In this document: positions 4,762 to 26,091 of the stretch, piece by piece | Numbering within the stretch: the stretch's first letter is position 1 | Layout: every line of letters starts with the position of its first letter | NCBI GenBank assembly: GCA_003250135.1 | Contig: QKHF01000302.1 | Coordinates: forward strand, 1-33,664 | Length of the DNA stretch: 33,664 nt | Reading direction: 5' to 3' | Origin: Paracoccaceae bacterium | Lineage (GTDB): Bacteria > Pseudomonadota > Alphaproteobacteria > Rhodobacterales > Rhodobacteraceae | Notes under the pieces: generated by a model | Told to the model about the DNA's origin: nothing | Database searches by the model: none | Seen by the model: only the letters and a program-made list of their open reading frames with translations | Made by a program: the position numbers and the translations under genes

Positions 4762-6798
4762 GTGACTTCAGCCGCGGTCGCCTTCGCCATACTCATCACC
4801 GAGCCCGCGCTGGGCGGACTCAATATCGATATCCAGCACATGATGCGGGATCTCCTGCGCGACGAGGACGACCCGGTCGAACAGGCGTCCGTGGCCGTCG
4901 CCGCGATCGACGAGGCGACGTTTCTGGACCCCGCCTTCGCCGCGCGTCCGCGCGCGGTGTGGACGCCCGAACTGGCGCGGGTGCAGGACGCGATACTCGA
5001 CGCCGGGGCGAAGGCCGTGGCGTGGGACCTGATCCTGCCGACCTCGGCGGCGTCCTGGACCCATGACATCGCGTTGGACCGGCCGCTGCTGCTCAGCCTC
5101 AGACGGGCTTCGAAGGAGGACCGGGTGATCCTGGGCGAGGCGGCGTTTCGCGGGCGGCGCATCTCGCCTTTCGCAGGCTACGCCTTCGCCGCAGGCGGGG
5201 CCGCCAACATCCGGCTGGTGAACACTCTGGTGGATGGCGACGGCGTGGTGCGCTCCGTCCCGCTGATGACCTTCGAGGCCACCGAAGCGGGCGACCGCGC
5301 CGTCCCCGGCATGGCGATGGAGGCGGCGCAAAGGGCGGGAATGGCGGCCCCCGACTGGCGCGCCCGGAACAACCGCACCATCGTCAATTTCGACCCTGCG
5401 CGGCCAATTCCGGTCTACAGCTTCGCGGACCTCAACGCATGCGCCGAGCGGGGCGATGCGGCCTATTTCGACGCGGCCTTCAAGGACAAGGTCGTGCTGA
5501 TCGGGCTGATCCTGAACCTTGAGGACCGCAAGGTGTCCTCCTCCCGCTGGATGGCGCGAGAGAACGCGCGGTCCGAGGCGCCCTGCGCTTCGGAGGCGAC
5601 ATCGGCCTCCGGCGCCAACCGCAGCGCGTTCGGAACGCCCGGCCCGCTGATCCTGGCGACCGCGATCGACAATCTGATCAGCGGCCGCGCGTTCCAGCCG
5701 CCGCCCGCCGCGCTCGGCGTGTTGCTGCTGGCGCTCCCGTCGATGGTCACCGCCGCGCTGGCGTTGTTCGCGCGCCTGTCGGTGGCGCTGGGCGGGGCGG
5801 CCCTGATGATCGCCATGGCCCCGGCGACGGGCCTGCTGTTCCTGGAGCGCCTTTGGGTCGCGCCGATGATCGAGGGGGCGTCGGCCGCGGCTTTCTCTCT
5901 GGCCAGCGGTCTGGTGATGCGGGTGCTGTTCGCCGACCGCCGAGAGGCGGTGCTGCGGCGAGCGTTCTCGGCCTATCTCGACGACCGGATGATGAAGAAA
6001 CTGCTGGAGGATGAGGAGCCGCCGCTTCTGGGCGGCGAGACGCGCGAGATGACCTCGCTGTTCGTCGACATCGCGGGCTTCTCCAGTATCTCCGAGCGGC
6101 TCGACTCCACCGATCTGGTCGCTTTCCTGAATCGGTTCTTCGAGACCATCCAGCGCGAGGTTCAGGCCCGCGGCGGCATGATCGAGCGTTTCGCGGGCGA
6201 CGCGGTGATCGCCATCTACGGGGCGCCGCTGCGCGATCCCGACCACGCCGAGAACGCGGTGCGCACCGCCATCGCCGCGCGCGGCGCGCTGGCGCAGTTG
6301 CGGGACCCGTGGGGCGCGCCGCTGCAGGCGCGGTTCGGCGTCAACACCGGCCCCGCGACGGTGGGCAATATCGGGGCCGAGGGGCGGCTCTCCTACACCG
6401 CCATCGGGGATGCGGTGAACCTCGCCTCGCGGCTGGAGGGCGCGAACAAGGCCTTCGGCACGCGGGTGCTGTGCGGCGAGGCGACGAAGGAGGCGACGAC
6501 CGGCGTCGTCTGGCGACGGATCGGGCGGGTGCAGGTTGTCGGCCGGGCGGAGACCGCGCAGGTATTCCAGCCATTAGGCCTCGCCGGAACGATCAGGCCC
6601 GAGGAAGAGGCGACCGCAGCGGCCTATCACGCGGCGCTGGCGCTTGCCGAAGCGGGCGACCTGGTCGCCGCCCACCGGGCGGCGGAGGCCGACGCGCTGG
6701 CGGATGACGGTCCGGCCCGAACGCTGAGGGCCGAACTCCAGCGGCGCATTGAATCCGGCGAACTCAACGCCTTCGCCTTCCGGCTGGCCGCGAAATAG
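4762..6798 (+). CDS. CHASE2 sensor-domain adenylate/guanylate cyclase (class III)
   Basis: N-terminal TM, a roughly 300-aa extracytoplasmic region, then several TM helices. C-terminal cyclase motifs are FVDIAGFSSISE, ERFAGDAVIAIYGAP, GVNTGPATVGNIG and YTAIGDAVNLASRLEG. The start is uncertain (see findings). Confidence 0.88.
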   Translation: MTSAAVAFAILITEPALGGLNIDIQHMMRDLLRDEDDPVEQASVAVAAIDEATFLDPAFAARPRAVWTPELARVQDAILDAGAKAVAWDLILPTSAASWTHDIALDRPLLLSLRRASKEDRVILGEAAFRGRRISPFAGYAFAAGGAANIRLVNTLVDGDGVVRSVPLMTFEATEAGDRAVPGMAMEAAQRAGMAAPDWRARNNRTIVNFDPARPIPVYSFADLNACAERGDAAYFDAAFKDKVVLIGLILNLEDRKVSSSRWMARENARSEAPCASEATSASGANRSAFGTPGPLILATAIDNLISGRAFQPPPAALGVLLLALPSMVTAALALFARLSVALGGAALMIAMAPATGLLFLERLWVAPMIEGASAAAFSLASGLVMRVLFADRREAVLRRAFSAYLDDRMMKKLLEDEEPPLLGGETREMTSLFVDIAGFSSISERLDSTDLVAFLNRFFETIQREVQARGGMIERFAGDAVIAIYGAPLRDPDHAENAVRTAIAARGALAQLRDPWGAPLQARFGVNTGPATVGNIGAEGRLSYTAIGDAVNLASRLEGANKAFGTRVLCGEATKEATTGVVWRRIGRVQVVGRAETAQVFQPLGLAGTIRPEEEATAAAYHAALALAEAGDLVAAHRAAEADALADDGPARTLRAELQRRIESGELNAFAFRLAAK

Positions 6799-6889
6799 CC
6801 CGCAGGCGCCGTCAATCGCGCTTTCCACGCGCGGCGTGTTGCGGTTAGGAAATATCGTACGCGTATTAGTGACAGGGAACGCAATCAGG

Positions 6890-7660
6890 ATGCCGCAGCG
6901 GAATGAGGCTGACGAACCGATCTCGCAGTTCAAACTCGAGGGCGCGCCGCCCCCCTTCTATGGCGGCCTGACCGTTCTGGAGGCCCGCCTCCACAGCGAC
7001 CTGGCCGTCTCGGACGCGCGAAACTTCGAATTTCTGCGCGGCGCGCAAAGCGTGCCGCTGACGGCGGAAGAGATCCCCGCCGCCCAGCGCGACTTTCCGG
7101 TGGTCTTCGCGGAGGGCGACGAGCCCACCCCGGTGGCGGCGCTTGCGGCGCGCGGCGCCGATGCGTTTCTGACCGAAAGCGGCGCCTGGAGGCCGGATGT
7201 ATATCAACCGGCCTATCTGCGTCGCATGCCGTTCATCCTGGCGCGCATCGACGGCGATTCAAAACGTCGCGCCCTGTGCGCCGATCTGAAGTCCCCGCTT
7301 TTCGCATCCGACCCTGACGCGCCGCCGGAGCGCCGGCTGTTTGCGGACGGCCGACCGACGGAACTCGCGCAGAGGGCGATCAAGATCTGCGAGGAGTTCG
7401 ACGTGGCCGCGGCGCGAACCAGCACGCTCTGCCGGCGGCTCAGCGATCTCGGCGTATTCGAGCGCCGCTCGGTGCAAGTAAGGACGCCTGGCGGCGTACG
7501 TGAATTCCGCGGCCTCGTCGTCATCTCGGAAGCCAAGTTGTGGGAGCTTGACGACGCGGCCCTGGCGGGGCTGGCGCGGACCGGCGCATTGAACATCGCT
7601 GCGGCGCATCTTATGTCGATTGCTAACTTTCGTTCTCCGCAAGCCGCCTCCACGACTTAA
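6890..7660 (+). CDS. SapC-family protein
   Basis: ATG at 6890 follows CAGGA. Segments resemble the SapC family: FEFLRGAQSVPLTAEEIPAAQRDFPVVF and YQPAYLRRMPFILA. The track start at 6749 overlaps the cyclase end and is unlikely. Confidence 0.7.
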   Translation: MPQRNEADEPISQFKLEGAPPPFYGGLTVLEARLHSDLAVSDARNFEFLRGAQSVPLTAEEIPAAQRDFPVVFAEGDEPTPVAALAARGADAFLTESGAWRPDVYQPAYLRRMPFILARIDGDSKRRALCADLKSPLFASDPDAPPERRLFADGRPTELAQRAIKICEEFDVAAARTSTLCRRLSDLGVFERRSVQVRTPGGVREFRGLVVISEAKLWELDDAALAGLARTGALNIAAAHLMSIANFRSPQAASTT

Positions 7661-8951: not shown

Positions 8952-9470
8952 ATGGCTGACAGCAGTCAGAAATTCATCGCGCGCAACCGCGCGCCGCGCG
9001 TGCAGATCGAATACGACGTCGAGGTCTACGGCGCCGAGAAGAAGGTGCAACTCCCCTTCGTCATGGGCGTCATGGCGGATCTCTCGGGCAAGCCCGAAAA
9101 TCCCCTGCCGGCCGTCGCCGACCGCAAGTTCCTGGAAATCGACGTCGACAATTTCGACGCCCGCATGAAGTCGATGAAGCCGCGCGCCGCGTTCACGGTC
9201 CCCAACACGCTTACCGGCGACGGCAATCTGGCGGTCGACATCACTTTCGAGAGCCTTGACGACTTCTCGCCCGCCGCCATCGCGCAGAAGGTGGAGCCGC
9301 TGAAGAAACTGTTCGACGCCCGCACCCAGCTGTCCAACCTGATGACGTATATGGACGGCAAGCAGGGCGCCGAGGACCTGTTGACCAAGATCACGCAAGA
9401 TCCCGCGGTTCTGCAGGCGCTGGCCGCTGCGCCCAAAGAGGGCGGTGACGAAGACAAGACGGAAGAGTGA
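8952..9470 (+). CDS. tssB: T6SS contractile sheath small subunit TssB (VipA/ImpB)
   Basis: RVQIEYDVEVYGAEKKVQLPFVMGVMADLSGK and FESLDDFSPAAIA are classic TssB motifs. GGAG is upstream. Confidence 0.95.
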   Translation: MADSSQKFIARNRAPRVQIEYDVEVYGAEKKVQLPFVMGVMADLSGKPENPLPAVADRKFLEIDVDNFDARMKSMKPRAAFTVPNTLTGDGNLAVDITFESLDDFSPAAIAQKVEPLKKLFDARTQLSNLMTYMDGKQGAEDLLTKITQDPAVLQALAAAPKEGGDEDKTEE

Positions 9471-9475
9471 CGAAC

Positions 9476-10963
9476 ATGGCTGAAGCTGAATCCCAAGCCG
9501 CCCAAGGCGAAGTCGCATTCGCCGAAAGCGATTTCGCGGCCCTGCTGGAAAAAGAATTCCGGCCGAAATCGGACCAGGCCAAAGAGGCTGTCGCGAGCGC
9601 GGTGCGCACGCTGGCCGAACAGGCGCTGGCCAACACCAACCTGATCAGCGACGAGGCGTTGAAGACGATCGAGTCGATGATCGCCGAGATCGACGCGAAG
9701 CTGACCGAGCAGGTGAACCTGGTTCTGCACCATCCCGATTTCCAGGCGCTGGAATCGTCGTGGCGCGGCCTGCACTTCCTCGTCAATAACACCGAGACGG
9801 ACGAGACCCTGAAGATCCGGGTGCTCAACATCTCGAAGAAGGACCTCCACAAGACGCTTCGGAAGTTCAAAGGCACGGCCTGGGACCAGAGCCCGATCTT
9901 CAAGAAGATGTACGAGGAGGAGTACGGTCAGTTTGGCGGCGAGCCCTATGGCGCGCTGGTTGGCGACTACTACTTCGACCACAGCCCGCGCGACGTCGAG
10001 ATTCTGGGCGAGATGTCCAAGGTCGCCGCCGCGGCGCACTGCCCGTTCCTGACCGGCGCCGAGCCGACGCTGTTCCAGATGGACAGCTGGCAGGAACTGG
10101 CGAACCCGCGCGATCTGACCAAGATCTTCCAGACGCCGGAATACGCCGCCTGGCGCAGCCTGCGCCAGTCGGAGGACTCGAAATATGTCGGGCTTTGCAT
10201 GCCGCGTTTCCTCGGCCGTCTGCCCTACGGCTCCAAGACCGACCCGGTCGAGGCGTTCGACTTCGAAGAGGACACCGAGGGCGCGACGAGCGACAAGTAC
10301 GGCTGGGTCAACGCCGCCTACGGCATGGCGCGCAATATCACCCGCGCGTTCAAGTCATACGGCTGGTGCACCCGCATCCGCGGCGTCGAGTCGGGCGGCG
10401 CGGTGGACAACCTGCCGACCCACACCTTCCCGTCGGACGATGGCGGCGTGGACATGAAATGCCCGACCGAGATCGCTATCTCGGACCGGCGCGAGGCGGA
10501 ACTGGCCAAAAACGGCCTGATGCCGCTGATCCACCGCAAGAACAGCGACATGGCCGCATTCATCGGCGCCCAGTCGCTTCACCAGCCGGCCGAGTATGAC
10601 GACCCGGACGCGACCGCGAACGCCAATCTCGGCGCGCGCCTGCCGTATCTGTTCGCGACCTGCCGTTTCGCCCACTATCTGAAGTGCATGGTCCGCGACA
10701 AGATCGGCTCGTTCAAGGAGCGTGACGACATGCAGGCCTGGCTGCAGAAGTGGATCGACAACTACGTCGACTACTCCGAGAACTCGCCGGAAGAAGAAAA
10801 GGCCAAAAGGCCGCTGGCGGCCGCCGAGGTCGTGGTGGAGGAGGTCGAGGGCAACCCCGGCTATTACACCTCGAAGTTCTTCCTGCGTCCGCATTACCAG
10901 CTTGAAGGGCTTTCGGTGTCCCTGCGGCTGGTCTCCAAGCTCCCGTCGCAGAAAGCGGCGTAA
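9476..10963 (+). CDS. tssC: T6SS contractile sheath large subunit TssC (VipB/ImpC)
   Basis: HHPDFQALESSWRGLHFLV, PRFLGRLPYG and the C-terminal YYTSKFFLRPHYQLEG are present. The ATG at 9476 is preferred; the track gives GTG at 9467, overlapping the tssB stop. Confidence 0.95.
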   Translation: MAEAESQAAQGEVAFAESDFAALLEKEFRPKSDQAKEAVASAVRTLAEQALANTNLISDEALKTIESMIAEIDAKLTEQVNLVLHHPDFQALESSWRGLHFLVNNTETDETLKIRVLNISKKDLHKTLRKFKGTAWDQSPIFKKMYEEEYGQFGGEPYGALVGDYYFDHSPRDVEILGEMSKVAAAAHCPFLTGAEPTLFQMDSWQELANPRDLTKIFQTPEYAAWRSLRQSEDSKYVGLCMPRFLGRLPYGSKTDPVEAFDFEEDTEGATSDKYGWVNAAYGMARNITRAFKSYGWCTRIRGVESGGAVDNLPTHTFPSDDGGVDMKCPTEIAISDRREAELAKNGLMPLIHRKNSDMAAFIGAQSLHQPAEYDDPDATANANLGARLPYLFATCRFAHYLKCMVRDKIGSFKERDDMQAWLQKWIDNYVDYSENSPEEEKAKRPLAAAEVVVEEVEGNPGYYTSKFFLRPHYQLEGLSVSLRLVSKLPSQKAA

Positions 10964-18623: not shown

Positions 18624-18683
18624 GCGGCGCTTCAATTTGGCGCCGCCGCAGGGCGCCGCCTCGACCGACAGGGAGGATGACCA

Positions 18684-19919
18684 ATGGCGAAGACAAAGAC
18701 GACGACGCACAAGTTCTACGTTGTCGACCTGATCCGCAACAAACCCAAGTCGCAGTATATCGAGATCCCGAAATACCGGGTCGATGTCGAGATCGAGGTC
18801 ACGACCAAGGGCAAGCTTTCGGCCAAGGAAGTCCCGTCGGCCGCGATGGAGCGGCTCGAGAAGACCGCCCGGAAGACTCTGGACGAGTACGAGAAGGTCA
18901 TCACGGAAGAGGCCATCAAGCTCGACAAGAAGATCACCGACCTGATGAAGCAGCCTTCGAAAGCGGCTCAGCAGGAAGCGGAAAAGCTGATCCAGGGGAC
19001 CAACGCGTCGATCAAGAACGCGCTCGATTCAGCCGAAGGCGCGGCGCAGAAGTCGATCGAAGCGCGGCTGAAGAAGGAAGCGCAGGGCGACAAGAACCTG
19101 AAAGAGGCGCGGGTCCGCACCGGCCTGAAGGTGGGCAAGAGCGTGATCAAGATCGCCGGGTCCGTCGGCAAGCTGGTCGCCAGCGCGGGCGCCGATGTTT
19201 CGTCCTATCTCACGATCACCAAGGAACTGGTCAACCTCGGAAAGGAGCTTCAGCAGCAGCTCAAGAACGAGGAGAAGCTTCGCAGCGACCTGCAGAAGGG
19301 CGTCGAGGCCTATGTGGCTTTCCGGGGCGACGAGATCATGAGGGCCGCCAAGAAGATCGGCCTGACCGACACGAAGGGCATCGACTTCAAGAAACCGCGC
19401 GAGGCGATGAAGGTCGTCGCGGATCGGCTCGCCGAGGGCGGCGAGGTCGCAAAGAAGGAGTTTCAGGACCCGAAGTCCGGCCTGACCAAGCTCAAGAGCG
19501 TCGTGATCAGGGGCGTCAAGTCGAAGCTTGCGGACGCGAACAAGGCCCGCCAGAAGTACCGCGAGCACACCACCAAGACGCGGCAAAAGGTCGACTCCAT
19601 GTCCGCCTCCGCCGACAAGCTGCAAAAGGCGATGCGGAGCGCGAAGAACCTGAAAGAGGGCGTGAAGATCGGCGCCCAGTGCATGCAGGTCAAACACGGG
19701 GTCTCGGCCATGGCCAGCAAGCTGGACGACCGCGAGAAATTCCTCGACAGCATGCAGGATATCCTGTCCGAGGCGGGCATGGACATTGACGACCGCACGA
19801 CGCTCGACAAGCTGAAGGAACTGGACAAGAAGACGATCCTGACCGAAGGCAAGGACCTGCTGAAGTCGATCAAGACGGTCAAGGGCGCGATCGAGTCGGT
19901 CGCTTCGGCGGTCGTCTAG
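18684..19919 (+). CDS. Lys-rich, predicted mostly alpha-helical protein of unknown function (T6SS-embedded orphan)
   Basis: AGGGAGGA lies upstream of the ATG. Strong GC3 bias in this frame (AAG, GAG, GTC, ATC codons). 66 Lys in 411 aa by my count. A short beta-like N-terminus (HKFYVVDLI ... YRVDVEIEVTT) is followed by long amphipathic helical sequence. No family recognised. Confidence 0.75.
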   Translation: MAKTKTTTHKFYVVDLIRNKPKSQYIEIPKYRVDVEIEVTTKGKLSAKEVPSAAMERLEKTARKTLDEYEKVITEEAIKLDKKITDLMKQPSKAAQQEAEKLIQGTNASIKNALDSAEGAAQKSIEARLKKEAQGDKNLKEARVRTGLKVGKSVIKIAGSVGKLVASAGADVSSYLTITKELVNLGKELQQQLKNEEKLRSDLQKGVEAYVAFRGDEIMRAAKKIGLTDTKGIDFKKPREAMKVVADRLAEGGEVAKKEFQDPKSGLTKLKSVVIRGVKSKLADANKARQKYREHTTKTRQKVDSMSASADKLQKAMRSAKNLKEGVKIGAQCMQVKHGVSAMASKLDDREKFLDSMQDILSEAGMDIDDRTTLDKLKELDKKTILTEGKDLLKSIKTVKGAIESVASAVV

Positions 19920-20013: not shown

Positions 20014-20964
20014 GTGGCGCGGCGCGACAAGATGAGACGAATGACGATGCCCGATTCTGAATCCATAATGAAGGCGCTGACGCCCAAGGGGCTGTCAACG
20101 ATCACCGACACCGAAAGCGTGATGGAGACGTCTCCGGAGGATCACAGCCTGCGCGCCAGGGCGCGGCGTCTGGTCGAGCTCGAAACGTTCAAGAACGTGA
20201 TCATGGTGGTCATCATCATCAGCGCGGTCGCGATCGGGCTGGGAACGGCGCCGTCGATACAGGAGAAGTTTGGCCCCGCGCTTGAACTTCTGGACACGAT
20301 CGTCATCGTGATCTTCGTCGTCGAGCTCGGACTGAAGCTGTTCGGTTACGGCTGGAATTTCTTCAAGTCCGGCTGGAACATTTTCGACCTCGTGATCGTG
20401 ATCATATCTCTGGCGCCGGCCGATGAAAGCCTGAAGGCCCTGCGGACCCTGCGTATCCTGCGGGCGATGCGAATCCTCTCGATCGTGCCGCAGATGCGCA
20501 AGGTCGTGGTGGCGCTGCTGACCGCCCTGCCCGGCATGGCCTCGGTGATCATCGTCCTCGGCATCGTCTTCTACATCTTCGCCGTGATCACGACCCGACT
20601 CTATGGCGAAGCCTTTCAGGACTGGTTCGGAACCGTCGGCCTTTCGCTCTACTCGCTGTTCCAGATCATGACGCTGGAAAGCTGGTCCATGGGCATTGTG
20701 CGTCCGGTGATGGAGGAATTTCCCTACGCCTGGGTGGTGTTCGTGCCCTTCATCATGGTCACGACCTTCGCGGTGGTGAACCTGTTCGTCGGTCTGCTGG
20801 TCAACACGATGCAGGAGGCGGTCGAAGAGGAAAAGGACGCCGAAATCGAGAAGCTGCGCGAACTTGTGCGGGGGGAGAACGCCGCCGTCAGCGCGCAGAT
20901 CACAGAATTACGCAAGCTGGTCCTGGAGCTGCGGGCCTCCGCCCAAAACGACCGGCAAAGTTGA
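20014..20964 (+). CDS. Voltage-gated sodium channel, BacNaV/NaChBac family
   Basis: Six hydrophobic segments. S4 is LRTLRILRAMRIL with four Arg at every third position (about 20431-20502). Pore filter is FQIMTLESWSMGIVRPV (TLESWSM at 20671-20691). C-terminal coiled-coil-like EKLRELV...ITELRKLVLELRA. Start is ambiguous: GTG 20014, or ATG at 20032, 20041, 20047 or 20068. Confidence 0.88.
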   Translation: MARRDKMRRMTMPDSESIMKALTPKGLSTITDTESVMETSPEDHSLRARARRLVELETFKNVIMVVIIISAVAIGLGTAPSIQEKFGPALELLDTIVIVIFVVELGLKLFGYGWNFFKSGWNIFDLVIVIISLAPADESLKALRTLRILRAMRILSIVPQMRKVVVALLTALPGMASVIIVLGIVFYIFAVITTRLYGEAFQDWFGTVGLSLYSLFQIMTLESWSMGIVRPVMEEFPYAWVVFVPFIMVTTFAVVNLFVGLLVNTMQEAVEEEKDAEIEKLRELVRGENAAVSAQITELRKLVLELRASAQNDRQS

Positions 20965-21016
20965 GACCTGATACTCCCGCAAGGCCGTCGCCCCCGACGG
21001 AGATAGGAGCCAAGCC

Positions 21017-22885
21017 GTGAGCGACACCGAGTTCGCACCCAATTTCGGAACCCTCAACGCCCCTGAGCCCGAGCGACGCCCGGACGGGAAGGGCCGCAAG
21101 CGCCTGGCGATTCTGGGTGATTTCTCCGGCCGCGCCACCCGCGGCGAGCTGGAGATCGGCGACGGGCTGGCCAACCGCAAGCCGCTGAAGCTGGACGTCG
21201 ACACGATGGAGCAGCTTCTGCAGCGGCTCGAGGTCAAGGTCCAGTTGCCGATCGGCGCGGACGACTCGGTGATCGAGGTCGAGATCAGCGAGATCGAGTC
21301 CTTCCATCCGGACGAGCTGTACGAGGAGCTGGAGCTGTTCTCGGAACTGGCCGGGCTGCGCCAGCAGCTGAAGAACTCCAGCACCTTCGACCGGGCCGCC
21401 GCCACGGTGCGCGGCTGGGCCGAGGAGGCCGGCGAGAAGCCCAAGCGGAAGAAGAAGCCCAAGGCGGCCGCGGTTGCAGTCGGCGCCCGGCTGTCCGACT
21501 TCGAAAAGCTGATGGGCCAGCGCGTGACCGCCAGCCATGAAGAGGCCGATATCGACAGTCTTCTGGCCAATATCGTCGGCCCGCATATCGTCGCCGCGCC
21601 GGACCCGGAACAGTCGACGATGATTGCGGCGGTCGACGCCGCCCTGTCGGACGCCATGCTCCGCGTGCTGCATCATCCCGACTTCCAGACGGTGGAGGCC
21701 GCGTGGCGGTCCGCCGACCTGCTGACCCGGCGGGTGGAGACCGACGCCGAGCTGCAGCTGGTGATGTACGACGTCTCGGTCGAGGAATTCACCGCCGATC
21801 TCGCCGCGCAGGACGAGCTGAGCGAGAGCGGGCTCTACAAGATGCTGGTTGAGAACCCGGCGCTCGACGAGGATCAGGGCCCCTTGAGCGCGATCTTCGG
21901 GCTCTACGAGTTCGATGAAACCCCGCCCCATGCGGAATTGCTCAGCCGCATCGGCAAGATCGCCCAGCAGGCGCACGCGCCCTTCGTCGCCTCGATGTCG
22001 GCCAATGCGCTGAAGACCGACTGGGATGACCACCATGTGCTGATCCGCGACACCTGGAAGGCGCTGAAGAAATCGCCGGAGGCGGCCTATATCGGCCTCG
22101 CCAGCCCGCGCTTCCTGCTGCGCCACCCCTACGGCGCGAAGTCCGAGCCGGTGGACCCGTTCGATTTCGAGGAGTTCTCCCGCCGCGAAGGCGTCAAGGG
22201 CATGCTGTGGGCGAACCCCGCCGTGCTGGCCTGCGTGATGCTGGCCAAGACCCTGAAGGAGGGCAAGCGCCTCGGCCAGATCATGACCATGGGCGACGTT
22301 CCCTATCACGTGATGGAGGACGAATACGGCGACCAGATCGCCCTGCCGACCACGGAGCGGCTGCTGAACGCGAAGACCGCGCAGAAGCTGGCCAAGCGCG
22401 GCTACATGCCGGTGCTGTCGATCAAGGGCCGCAACGAGGTTCGGCTCGGCTCGTTCCAGTCGCTCAAGGGCAAGCCGATCGCCGGCTTCTGGTCCGGCGC
22501 GCCGATCCCGATCGAGGCGGAGGAGCCCGAGGTCGAGGTGATGATGGTCGCCGGCAAGGCGCCCGAACGGGTCAAGGTCGAAGAGGAGGAAGAGGACGTC
22601 ACGCCCGGTTTCGAAGACGACGATGACGATCTCGATCTTGACCTCGATCTCGACTTCGATCTGGACGATGACAGCGAGGCTGAGGAGTCCGACGGCGACG
22701 ACGACCTGGACCTCGATCTCGACTTCGATCTCGACGACCTGGGCGGCGACGATGACGCCGGCGATGACGACGATGGGATGGACGAGTTGGACGCCCTTCT
22801 GGCCGATCTCGGCGGCGACGACGACGAGGACGACGAAGACGAGGACCTCGACGCCGATCTGGACGCCCTGCTGGCCGATCTTTGA
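21017..22885 (+). CDS. Single-chain TssB-TssC sheath-like paralog, C-terminally truncated, with polyacidic tail
   Basis: GTG follows TAGGAG. Residues about 25-125 align by eye with TssB (LAILGDFSGR ... LKLDVDTMEQLL ... IESFHPDELY). Residues about 165-500 align with TssC (HHPDFQTVEAAWRSADLL, ASPRFLLRHPYG, PVDPFDFEEF). The TssC C-terminal region is absent. The last 101 aa contain 58 Asp/Glu and no Lys/Arg/His. Confidence 0.8.
   Translation: MSDTEFAPNFGTLNAPEPERRPDGKGRKRLAILGDFSGRATRGELEIGDGLANRKPLKLDVDTMEQLLQRLEVKVQLPIGADDSVIEVEISEIESFHPDELYEELELFSELAGLRQQLKNSSTFDRAAATVRGWAEEAGEKPKRKKKPKAAAVAVGARLSDFEKLMGQRVTASHEEADIDSLLANIVGPHIVAAPDPEQSTMIAAVDAALSDAMLRVLHHPDFQTVEAAWRSADLLTRRVETDAELQLVMYDVSVEEFTADLAAQDELSESGLYKMLVENPALDEDQGPLSAIFGLYEFDETPPHAELLSRIGKIAQQAHAPFVASMSANALKTDWDDHHVLIRDTWKALKKSPEAAYIGLASPRFLLRHPYGAKSEPVDPFDFEEFSRREGVKGMLWANPAVLACVMLAKTLKEGKRLGQIMTMGDVPYHVMEDEYGDQIALPTTERLLNAKTAQKLAKRGYMPVLSIKGRNEVRLGSFQSLKGKPIAGFWSGAPIPIEAEEPEVEVMMVAGKAPERVKVEEEEEDVTPGFEDDDDDLDLDLDLDFDLDDDSEAEESDGDDDLDLDLDFDLDDLGGDDDAGDDDDGMDELDALLADLGGDDDEDDEDEDLDADLDALLADL
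22640..22881 (+). repeat. Intragenic direct repeats encoding the acidic tail
   Basis: A 29-nt unit, gacctcgatctcgacttcgatctSgacga, occurs at 22640-22668 and 22709-22737 (28/29 identical, 69 nt apart, in frame; DLDLDFDLDD). A 20-nt unit, gacgccctKctggccgatct, occurs at 22790-22809 and 22862-22881 (19/20, 72 nt apart; DALLADL). Confidence 0.85.
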
Positions 22886-22893
22886 TGCGCGCA

Positions 22894-22915
22894 GGCCGCG
22901 CCGGCAGGCGCGGCC
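22894..22915 (+). terminator. Strong GC hairpin between the sheath-like gene and vgrG
   Basis: GGCCGCGCC-ggca-GGCGCGGCC is a 9-bp stem with a 4-nt loop, followed by CTTGTTG. This is a weak U-tract, so a partial terminator or processing site at best. Confidence 0.35.
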
Positions 22916-25083: not shown

Positions 25084-25725
25084 ATGAGCGACGACAAGAA
25101 ATTCGCCGATCTGAAGAAGCTCTCGCCGGAGCCGCTGGCCGAGATCCTGACCCGCGCGACCGTGCGGCTGAAGACCAAGGTCAACCTGCCGCGCGAGGCG
25201 CCTGCGGCCGACTACCTGCCGCTGCTCGAGAAGGCCGAGGCGCCGCTCGACCTACTGATGGCGCTGGCGTACGCCCTACCCGCGCGAGAGGCGGTCTGGT
25301 GGTCGTGCCTCGCCACCCGGCATGACATGGACAAGGAGGAAGCCGACGCCTCGCACCCGATCAAGGCGGCGGAGAACTGGGTGTTCCAGCCCGGCGAAAA
25401 AAACAAGAAGATCGCCGACAAGGTGTTCAAGCGCGCCGCGGGCGACGACCCGGCCAAACTCTGCGTCATGGCCGCGCTTTATGGAGACGGCAAGGTGGAT
25501 TTGGGCGACGACCAGCAGATCGACGCGCCGCCCTATGTCAGCCAGGGCTGCGCTTACAGCGCCATCGTCGGCGCCGCCAGCCGAGCCGAGGAAGGCCTGC
25601 TGGAGCGCGCCGCCCTGCTGATCGAACAGGGGCTCGACATCGCTCGCGGCGGCAACGGCAAGATTGAGAAACCCGGCGGCGCGTCGGCGGATGGCGCTGG
25701 CGCAGCGGGGGGCGGGAATGCATAA
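25084..25725 (+). CDS. Hypothetical protein between vgrG and PAAR (candidate adaptor or cargo)
   Basis: 213-aa GC3-rich ORF starting 10 nt after the vgrG stop. Contains REAVWWSCLATRH and a Gly/Ala-rich C-terminus. No family recognised. Confidence 0.65.
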   Translation: MSDDKKFADLKKLSPEPLAEILTRATVRLKTKVNLPREAPAADYLPLLEKAEAPLDLLMALAYALPAREAVWWSCLATRHDMDKEEADASHPIKAAENWVFQPGEKNKKIADKVFKRAAGDDPAKLCVMAALYGDGKVDLGDDQQIDAPPYVSQGCAYSAIVGAASRAEEGLLERAALLIEQGLDIARGGNGKIEKPGGASADGAGAAGGGNA

Positions 25726-25782
25726 TCGTTCAAAATCAAGGGCGCGCGCCAGTCGGACGTCGCGCCATGAGGAGATAAGGCC

Positions 25783-26091
25783 ATGCCTCCAGCAGCCCGA
25801 TTGACGGACATGCACGCATGCCCGATGCAGACCCCGACCCCGGCCGGGCCGGTGCCGCATGTGGGCATGCCGATCATTCCGCCAGACGCGCCGACGGTGA
25901 TGATCTGCATGATCCCCGCGGCGCGGGTCAGCGACATGGGCGTCTGCACGGCGCCGGTGCCGAACGATCCGATCGTCAAGGGCAGCACCAGCGTTTTCAT
26001 CTGCAAGATGCCGGCGGCCCGCATCGGGGATTCCACGGCCCATGGCGGAACGGTCACCGCGGGCGCGCCCACGGTCAACATCGGCGGCTGA
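25783..26091 (+). CDS. PAAR-domain protein (spike-sharpening cone, no extension)
   Basis: Three PAAR motifs: PPAARLTD, IPAARVSD and MPAARIGD. 102 aa. Confidence 0.92.
   Translation: MPPAARLTDMHACPMQTPTPAGPVPHVGMPIIPPDAPTVMICMIPAARVSDMGVCTAPVPNDPIVKGSTSVFICKMPAARIGDSTAHGGTVTAGAPTVNIGG

Follow-up and report, generated by a model that had tools for sequence, protein, structure and literature searches.

A single-chain TssB-TssC relative without the sheath handshake domain, most probably a short-form TssCL, in an H1-type type VI secretion cluster

Why does a type VI secretion system (T6SS) cluster that already encodes both sheath subunits, TssB and TssC, carry a further gene in which diverged relatives of the two are joined in one chain? 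The question is raised by a 33,664-nt stretch of DNA from a Paracoccaceae bacterium (contig QKHF01000302.1, positions 1 to 33,664, hereafter the window), where a gene at 21017-22885 encodes a 622-amino-acid (aa) protein of this kind. We report that what this protein keeps of a single sheath protomer is its middle and outer layers, and that the layer carrying the handshake between protomers is lost. We argue, tentatively, that it mimics a protomer rather than building the sheath. The elements on which the argument rests are the following.

21017-22885, + strand: whole gene, 622-aa fused sheath-like protein, almost certainly a short form of the TssCL family (open reading frame, Pfam, homologs, ratio of nonsynonymous to synonymous substitution rates, dN/dS, of about 0.1)
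21000-21009, + strand: ribosome-binding site GGAGATAGGA(G), 7 nt before the GTG start (direct sequence reading; the N-terminus aligns with the N-termini of homologs)
21017-21433, + strand: TssB-like module, aa 1-139 (Pfam T6SS_VipA at aa 30-120, BLASTP to the window TssB, secondary structure in the AlphaFold2 (AF2) model)
21434-21463, + strand: basic patch EKPKRKKKPK, within a low-confidence linker (sequence, AF2)
21494-21514, + strand: SDFEKLM helix, aa 160-166, counterpart of the TssC N-terminal helix motif (alignment, AF2; motif class of Forster 2014)
21551-21574, + strand: IDSLLANI helix, at the position of TssC helix H1 of sheath domain 3 (phmmer against VipB, AF2 helix 179-190, regular-expression scan)
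21617-22465, + strand: VipB domain (N-terminal in TssC), aa 201-483, middle and outer sheath layers (Pfam, phmmer, BLASTP, Foldseek)
22502-22882, + strand: acidic disordered tail, aa 496-622, replacing the gp25-like handshake domain of TssC (AF2, composition)
22787-22810, + strand: first LDALLADL motif, a predicted short helix (AF2, regular-expression scan)
22859-22882, + strand: second LDALLADL motif, the extreme C-terminus (family alignment, regular-expression scan)
8952-9470, + strand: canonical tssB, comparator and presumed partner system (Pfam, NCBIfam equivalog)
9467-10963, + strand: canonical tssC, with VipB and VipB_2, probable start ATG 9476 (Pfam, NCBIfam equivalog)

A preliminary description, made from the sequence alone, had read the gene as a TssB-like part followed by a TssC-like part lacking the C-terminal domain of TssC, coexisting with canonical TssB and TssC, and had predicted that profile scans would return T6SS_VipA and the VipB N-terminal domain without VipB_2. 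All of this was confirmed: every motif it quoted was found at its place, and both canonical subunits are encoded in the same cluster, TssC with its VipB and VipB_2 domains. In Pfam, T6SS_VipA matched aa 30-120 of the fused protein weakly (30.4 bits, above the gathering threshold of 24), and the VipB N-terminal domain matched aa 201-483 with 161 bits (E 3.5e-47). No match to VipB_2, the gp25-like C-terminal domain of TssC, was obtained even at E<=1, nor to any other Pfam family beyond VipA and VipB at that threshold. By BLASTP, the protein is 30% identical to the window TssC over aa 201-483, the alignment ending at TssC ...GAQSL371 (residue 371 of 498), and 20% identical to the window TssB over aa 30-124 (E 8e-6). 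The equivalog profiles gave scores below their cut-offs and over part of their length only: 158.4 bits against 271.5 for TIGR03355 (TssC, profile positions 51-351 of 473), and 26.8 bits against 97.25 for TIGR03358 (TssB, positions 33-125).

The AF2 model, built on an alignment from 45 homologs, is confident over aa 1-495, most blocks of 10 residues having a predicted local distance difference test score (pLDDT) of 84-97; from aa 498 on it is disordered, except for two short helices at 589-596 and 613-621. Foldseek returned TssC chains of solved sheaths over about 310 columns, 5n8n_B (E 2e-17) and 3j9g both at E of about 1e-17, together with 5urx. Among solved structures, Pseudomonas aeruginosa TssC1, which is of the H1 type, is nearest in sequence (128 bits in phmmer, versus 103 bits for VipB). 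The TssB-like module retains two strands and two helices, those that interlace with TssC, and begins with a conserved xYxxxFGTL segment (M1, G11 and FGTL in the consensus; pLDDT about 86). After it comes the basic linker, which starts at 21434, one codon before the position 21437 given in the preliminary description; an R/K-rich patch occupies this place throughout the family alignment. From there on, the N-terminal region of TssC is complete (aa ~155-490), with the order and spacing of its elements preserved. SDFEKLM has as counterparts SDFAALL in the window TssC and EFASLL in P. aeruginosa TssC1, and its F162 and L165 are invariant in the family. IDSLLANI(VG) is followed by the long domain-3 helix and fits the same LD-type pattern as the motifs of the tail.

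In the 5N8N nomenclature, what the fused protein reproduces of one protomer is thus its middle layer, domain 2, and its outer helical bundle, domain 3; it has lost domain 1 (the inner, gp25-like handshake layer) as well as both donor arms, the N-terminal strand of TssB and the C-terminal strand of TssC. In the canonical sheath, these two strands are inserted into domain 1 to make the handshake (Salih 2018, PMC5807055). The TssB N-terminal arm is both a handshake donor strand and the TagJ-binding segment, the residues involved in the latter being 8-30 (Forster 2014); this arm, QKFIARNRAPRVQIEYDVE, is absent from the fused protein, as is the C-tail of TssB. Because tubules do not form when HsiC1 lacks its C terminus (Lossi 2013, PMC3597794) and the handshake strands are lost, the fused protein is not an ordinary lattice subunit. 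From established sheath biology, it should not be able to enter the lattice as a load-bearing subunit, and we consider it highly probable that it does not polymerise.

Compared with canonical TssB/TssC (VipA/VipB, HsiB1/HsiC1; 5N8N, 3J9G), the window protein thus shares the TssC N-terminal fold and the TssB strands and helix, and differs in being a single chain without gp25-like domain, TssC C-terminal strand, TssB arm or TssB C-tail, ending in an acidic tail instead. Its state resembles that of HsiB1-HsiC1(1-212) and of soluble T4 gp18 fragments, in which the fold (TssB-TssC, or the gp18 outer domains) is kept and the tubule-forming C-terminal region is lost. Those are laboratory constructs, whereas the window protein occurs naturally, is encoded by a conserved gene and has a tail motif in addition.

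The gene itself is a single uninterrupted reading frame of 622 codons on the + strand, from GTG 21017 to the TGA that ends at 22885, and its ribosome-binding site, GGAGATAGGAG, ends 7 nt upstream of the start. The GC content at third codon positions (GC3) is 0.80-0.96 per 300-nt block throughout, as in adjacent genes, and therefore shows no frame change or hidden frameshift; the split gene envisaged as a caveat in the preliminary description was not found. Relative to an 88%-identical ortholog, dN/dS is 0.10 in the TssB-like part, 0.15 in the linker, 0.07 in the TssC-like part and 0.15 in the tail, so the fused gene is under purifying selection. Promoter and terminator scans around it yielded nothing meaningful, and neither kind of element isolates it from its neighbours. 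A perfect 9-bp GC-rich hairpin, GGCCGCGCC-GGCA-GGCGCGGCC (22894-22915, + strand), lies between its stop codon and the ribosome-binding site of vgrG; a U-tract is lacking, and in folding energy it does not differ significantly from shuffled sequences (z = -1.8).

Has such a protein been described before? The preliminary description knew of no T6SS component with this architecture, and on this point it was mistaken: the fused architecture was noticed in print in 2013 and named in 2022, and is therefore of a known kind. Lossi et al. (2013, JBC 288:7536, PMC3597794) mentioned that DUF770 and DUF877 are combined in several proteins, for example one of 622 aa from the gamma proteobacterium HdN1, solely as support for a fused, gp18-like ancestry. 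The cited example shares the Pfam architecture of the window protein (VipA/DUF770 plus VipB/DUF877) and is of similar length. Suria et al. (2022, Front Microbiol 13:988044, PMC9515649) gave the name TssCL to proteins of roseobacter symbionts of the squid accessory nidamental gland, in which TssB is matched at 86% and 26% identity by two VipA domains, and TssC at 31% by a single VipB domain; Tateyamaria clusters are listed as having “two tssC, no tssCL”, TssCL is reported as undetected outside Alphaproteobacteria, and its function is left open. A literature search worded on “TssB-TssC fusion” gave no match, and this prior work emerged through a search focused on Rhodobacteraceae. The name TssCL was not found in the other literature searched, the family goes unmentioned in a 2026 review of T6SS accessory genes, and TagB (Bernal 2021) is an unrelated protein of about 30 kDa.

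The window protein shares with TssCL a diverged VipA domain followed by the VipB N-terminal domain, its core being 42-55% identical to the Ruegeria, Leisingera and Tateyamaria loci, and an H1-like cluster with separate tssB and tssC in which the gene lies 3' of clpV and 5' of vgrG. Divergence from the cognate subunits is of the same order (about 26-31% identity for TssCL; 20% to TssB and 30% to TssC for the window protein). It differs from TssCL, which has two VipA domains in about 1000-1700 aa, by its single VipA match and its 622 aa, and by having neither an authentic N-terminal TssB domain nor an acidic repeat array of several hundred residues. It corresponds to the “second tssC” type, which has the C-terminal module found in TssCL and no authentic TssB domain, and we are nearly certain that it is a short-form member of the TssCL family. 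Neither the loss of the handshake domain nor a conserved C-terminal motif is reported in the passages of Suria et al. considered here. What is new in the present analysis is the absence of that domain from all 265 family members, the extent of the family (at least ~640 clusters), its conserved C-terminal motif, the forms fused to authentic TssB (23 of 83 loci) and two fusions to the ImpA_N domain of TssA.

We then asked how far the family extends. A protein search yielded at least 120 close relatives of 560-1084 aa, with VipA and VipB and without VipB_2. With the family-specific N-terminal 200 aa as query, 644 clusters were matched among 1.84 billion representatives (clusters at 50% identity, E<=1e-10). 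Scanning species-representative genomes produced 566 confirmed stretches, of which the best 80 belong to Rhodobacterales, Hyphomicrobiales, Rhodospirillales, Acetobacteraceae, Burkholderiales (Ideonella, Aquabacterium, Rubrivivax, Caldimonas), Pirellula and other Planctomycetia, and Verrucomicrobiia: the family spans Alpha- and Betaproteobacteria, Planctomycetes and Verrucomicrobia. Core identity across orders is 42-55%, and TssF and TssK fall in a similar range in the same loci. VgrG is 27-34% identical in these loci, and canonical TssC is at 81-86% within those that are Alphaproteobacterial. That the core evolves faster than canonical TssC fits a release from the constraints of the lattice. 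Database annotations of family members vary widely: sheath large subunit, small subunit, ImpC, ImpB/VipA family, “pilus assembly protein FimV”, hypothetical or “sheath domain-containing protein”. Automated T6SS typing by tssB and tssC counts will miscount clusters that contain the fused gene.

The tail deserves separate attention. It comprises 127 residues, of which 64 are D or E, with an isoelectric point (pI) of 4.05. The preliminary description had seen in it an acidic replacement of the TssC C-terminus; it is indeed there, and it is not mere filler. A C-terminal motif of the [DE]xDxELAALLxxL type, conserved across phyla, closes the protein in nearly all of 83 reconstructed locus reading frames, with endings such as ...MDPELAALLADL, ...TEPDLDALLASLK and ...MDPDLAALLKSLE. 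The C-tail consensus of TssB, DPALLKALAAAP, resembles MDPELAALLADL only loosely. Elsewhere in the 23 proteins of the window, the LD-type pattern occurs once, in a TssC domain-3 helix.

Relatives with additional domains hint at where the protein might act. In 23 of 83 loci, all from Rhodobacterales or Hyphomicrobiales, the same reading frame opens with an authentic TssB domain that is complete, retains the TagJ-binding segment and is 69-83% identical to the canonical TssB of the window. These long forms are laid out as authentic TssB, several hundred residues of acidic LD-type repeats, core and tail, and reach 1936 aa; Pfam confirms this layout for a 1429-aa Ruegeria protein. Clusters with a long form retain separate tssB and tssC. 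Long forms at L010 7430-11719, L075, L014 and L002 10001-12754 are single reading frames of 917-1936 aa, with repeat units such as DILSDLA, DALSSLP and DLDALLGDL and up to 22 LD-type matches. Some database gene calls begin at internal methionines and miss the TssB domain (e.g. P0110). In two other proteins, P0329 (L086 4918-8184) and P0377, core and acidic tail are followed by the ImpA_N domain of TssA. At the other extreme are tail-less relatives of about 500 aa, made of the TssB-like module and the VipB N-terminal domain only (L087 10001-11578, L088 823-2349, L089 10001-11536). L088 and L089 contain many sulfatases, and L089 also PSCyt, PSD1 and DUF1501 genes, which gives them a planctomycete-like look; in L087 a divergent hcp adjoins the gene, with large unannotated genes downstream.

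These fusions suggest the TssA cap or the surface of the sheath as the place where the protein acts. TssB tolerates fusions at its C-terminus, TssB1-sfGFP having been placed at the native locus (PMC7896307), and a long form that paired with canonical TssC could therefore carry the remaining chain on the sheath. The Nt1 domain of TssA binds the TssB+TssC complex only, and docking models place it at the sheath's distal end (PMC11106082); this requirement for both subunits makes a TssB'-TssC' head fused to ImpA_N a suggestive Rosetta-stone link. Like TssA, TagA, TagB and TagJ, the window protein is encoded in a T6SS cluster and may act at the sheath or cap; it has no sequence similarity to any of the four, and it lacks the ImpA_N (Nt1) domain of the TssA-like proteins (TssA, TagA).

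We therefore favour, without holding it as established, a reading in which the fused protein is a non-polymerising protomer mimic, attached to the sheath or cap, that works as an adaptor or decoy for sheath-binding factors. As a soluble or tethered copy of the TssB-TssC protomer, it would present the composite surface that such factors read, TssA Nt1 in the first place, with TagJ and ClpV1 as other candidates, and its C-terminal motif or motifs would hold a further partner. The net effect would be to tune sheath assembly, anchoring or recycling, and not to extend the sheath. A more far-reaching version, which we put forward with clear reservations, is that the family forms a new functional class of T6SS accessory proteins, in which long forms would be displayed as mimics on the sheath and short forms would dock at the TssA cap, their multivalent LD-type helices coupling sheath dynamics to another cellular component, for example a sodium channel. 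Such coupling, if true, would link membrane potential to firing or anchoring; a channel gene lies immediately 5' of the fused gene in Rhodobacterales.

Several observations weigh against the protomer mimic. The short form of the window carries neither a TssB nor a TssA fusion, and its recruitment to the machine is something that we infer. Fusions to ImpA_N are rare (2 of 265), and P0329 is an orphan gene next to a transposase on an 11-kb metagenome contig without T6SS genes, which makes it uninformative as to whether the fusion replaces tssA. The tail-less relatives sit outside recognisable T6SS clusters, in planctomycete-like genomes, so that the core may have sheath-independent roles. The AF2 model of a long form (P0091, alignment of 24 sequences) has a mean pLDDT of 51, with 27-62 in its TssB domain. 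A search among the 23 window proteins identified no partner for the tail motif, and the study that named TssCL is purely in silico.

What else could the protein do? The preliminary description had proposed nucleation, capping or poisoning of the sheath, any of which the protein might perform. It might end chains rather than mimic protomers, acting as a terminator or poison whose xYxxxFGTL segment, or whose domain 2 and 3 surfaces, bind to the last ring or to unassembled protomers and stop more subunits from joining; sheath length would thus be limited, or off-pathway polymerisation suppressed. Such a role, which we find unlikely, would be in line with a protein that keeps protomer surfaces and offers no acceptor to the next subunit, that has a conserved and confidently modelled N-terminal segment, and that is linked to TssA, located at the growing end. 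However, the N-terminal segment has no sequence similarity to the TssB arm, and conservation in the core operons of four groups of phylum level, in many cases together with very long repeat arrays, would not be expected of a pure inhibitor.

An equally improbable role would be at the disassembly step, where exposed TssC-type N-terminal and LD-type helices would recruit or titrate the ClpV1-type unfoldase and so time disassembly. The cluster is of the TagJ and ClpV1 class, in which recognition of TssC by ClpV is indirect (Forster 2014), and in most Alphaproteobacterial loci the gene comes after clpV. The protein keeps the N-terminal helix motif of TssC with its invariant F162 and L165, and the LD-type helices are amphipathic, as is the VipB helix bound by ClpV-N. 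Yet the groove of the H1-class ClpV1 N-domain is blocked and the TssC1 N-helix is dispensable for binding (Forster 2014), and the short form lacks the TagJ-binding residues 8-30 of TssB.

The question of how TssCL, TssB and TssC interact in forming the sheath, asked by Suria et al. (2022, PMC9515649), raises a third alternative, that of an alternative subunit co-polymerising with TssB and TssC into a functional, modified sheath. The sheath domains and the location in a sheath-encoding cluster are compatible with it, and the highly conserved authentic TssB of the long forms could be incorporated into the lattice by pairing with canonical TssC. The window protein has no such domain, though. Both donor strands of the handshake and their acceptor domain are missing, removal of the HsiC1 C-terminus abolishes tubules (PMC3597794), and the core evolves much faster than canonical sheath proteins, all of which leaves co-polymerisation a rather small chance.

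We give very little credit to a secreted effector or cargo, a role that the preliminary description had kept in view since PKRKKKPK resembles a nuclear localisation signal. The gene does lie directly 5' of vgrG in Rhodobacterales and Hyphomicrobiales and the basic patch is present, but vgrG adjacency is not conserved across lineages, and the R/K-rich patch is kept in free-living marine, soil, planctomycete and verrucomicrobial members. Neither a toxin or enzymatic domain nor an adjacent immunity gene was found by Pfam and inspection of neighbours; the operons in which the gene resides are core structural ones, with neighbours that differ from lineage to lineage, and the core of the protein (42-55% identical across orders) is unlike fast-evolving effectors, VgrG being 27-34% identical in the same loci. 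Finally, although the TssB-like part scores weakly (30 bits), a decaying duplicate or an assembly or frameshift artefact can be set aside given a single frame of uniformly high GC3, a dN/dS of about 0.1, the 644 clusters matched by the N-terminal 200 aa at E<=1e-10, and the same architecture in hundreds of genomes.

The control of sheath growth, anchoring and recycling in short-TssA (H1-type) T6SSs, the class in which sheath control is the least understood, is still debated, and the TssCL family is a widespread, conserved and uncharacterised component of their clusters. Its anatomy supplies a natural single-chain TssB-TssC “head”, predicted to be soluble, together with short linear motifs. If it bound TssA Nt1, TagJ or ClpV, the mimic would show which sheath surface those factors read, and would give structural studies a monomeric stand-in for the sheath that is ready to use. 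Should it prove dispensable, the outcome is an annotation correction only, for genes now mislabelled as large or small sheath subunits.

The surrounding cluster is complete, in the order tssA (short, ImpA_N)-tssB-tssC-hcp-tagJ (ImpE)-tssE-tssF-tssG-clpV, then a lysine-rich 411-aa protein, a voltage-gated sodium-channel homolog and the fused gene, followed 3' by vgrG-DUF6931-PAAR-fha-tssJ-tssK-tssL-OmpA-tssM, with tssM running past the window end. The window ClpV starts MAEISR (Arg6), and TssC carries DFAALL, not LLDEII; together with the presence of TagJ, this places the cluster in the P. aeruginosa H1 class. No TssB-like sequence was found in the window between clpV and the fused gene. The window gene order is kept in L001, L002 and many further loci, and the fused gene follows clpV in most Alphaproteobacterial loci and directly precedes vgrG in Rhodobacterales and Hyphomicrobiales. 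Other lineages have it between clpV and fha, between tssA and tssB, or downstream of tssL; in the verrucomicrobial locus L023 the order is tssA-fused gene-tssB-tssC.

The sodium-channel homolog (20014-20964, + strand), 52 nt 5' of the fused gene, matches NavMs (5hvx, E 5e-75) and also NavAb (3rvy), and has the selectivity filter TLESWSM. By tblastn, a homolog lies 5' of the fused gene in about 23 related loci, all Rhodobacterales-like, and in the Pirellulales locus L003 one lies downstream of it on the opposite strand. Among the top matches of a literature search, a T6SS and a bacterial voltage-gated sodium channel (BacNaV) were not found together.

The lysine-rich protein after clpV (18684-19919, + strand; pI 9.7) has neither a Pfam nor a Protein Data Bank match; an overlapping reading frame at 18677-19789 was rejected as being in the wrong frame. 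In loci of Ruegeria, Cohaesibacter and Agrobacterium pusense, a homolog likewise comes after clpV. As an obligatory partner of the fused protein it was rejected, since tblastn found it in only about 9 of 85 loci. The proximity of a strongly basic protein to a strongly acidic one may carry meaning, although the pairing is not found in every locus.

Directly 5' of tssA, a CHASE2-sensor adenylate/guanylate cyclase and a SapC-family protein (4762-7660, + strand) could supply regulatory input, and a Cohaesibacter-like locus (L085) has a Ser/Thr kinase at the matching place. After vgrG come the DUF6931 and PAAR proteins (25084-26091, + strand), a region in which no obvious effector/immunity pair was seen; the vgrG-DUF6931-PAAR trio is kept 3' of the fused gene in most Rhodobacterales and Hyphomicrobiales loci.

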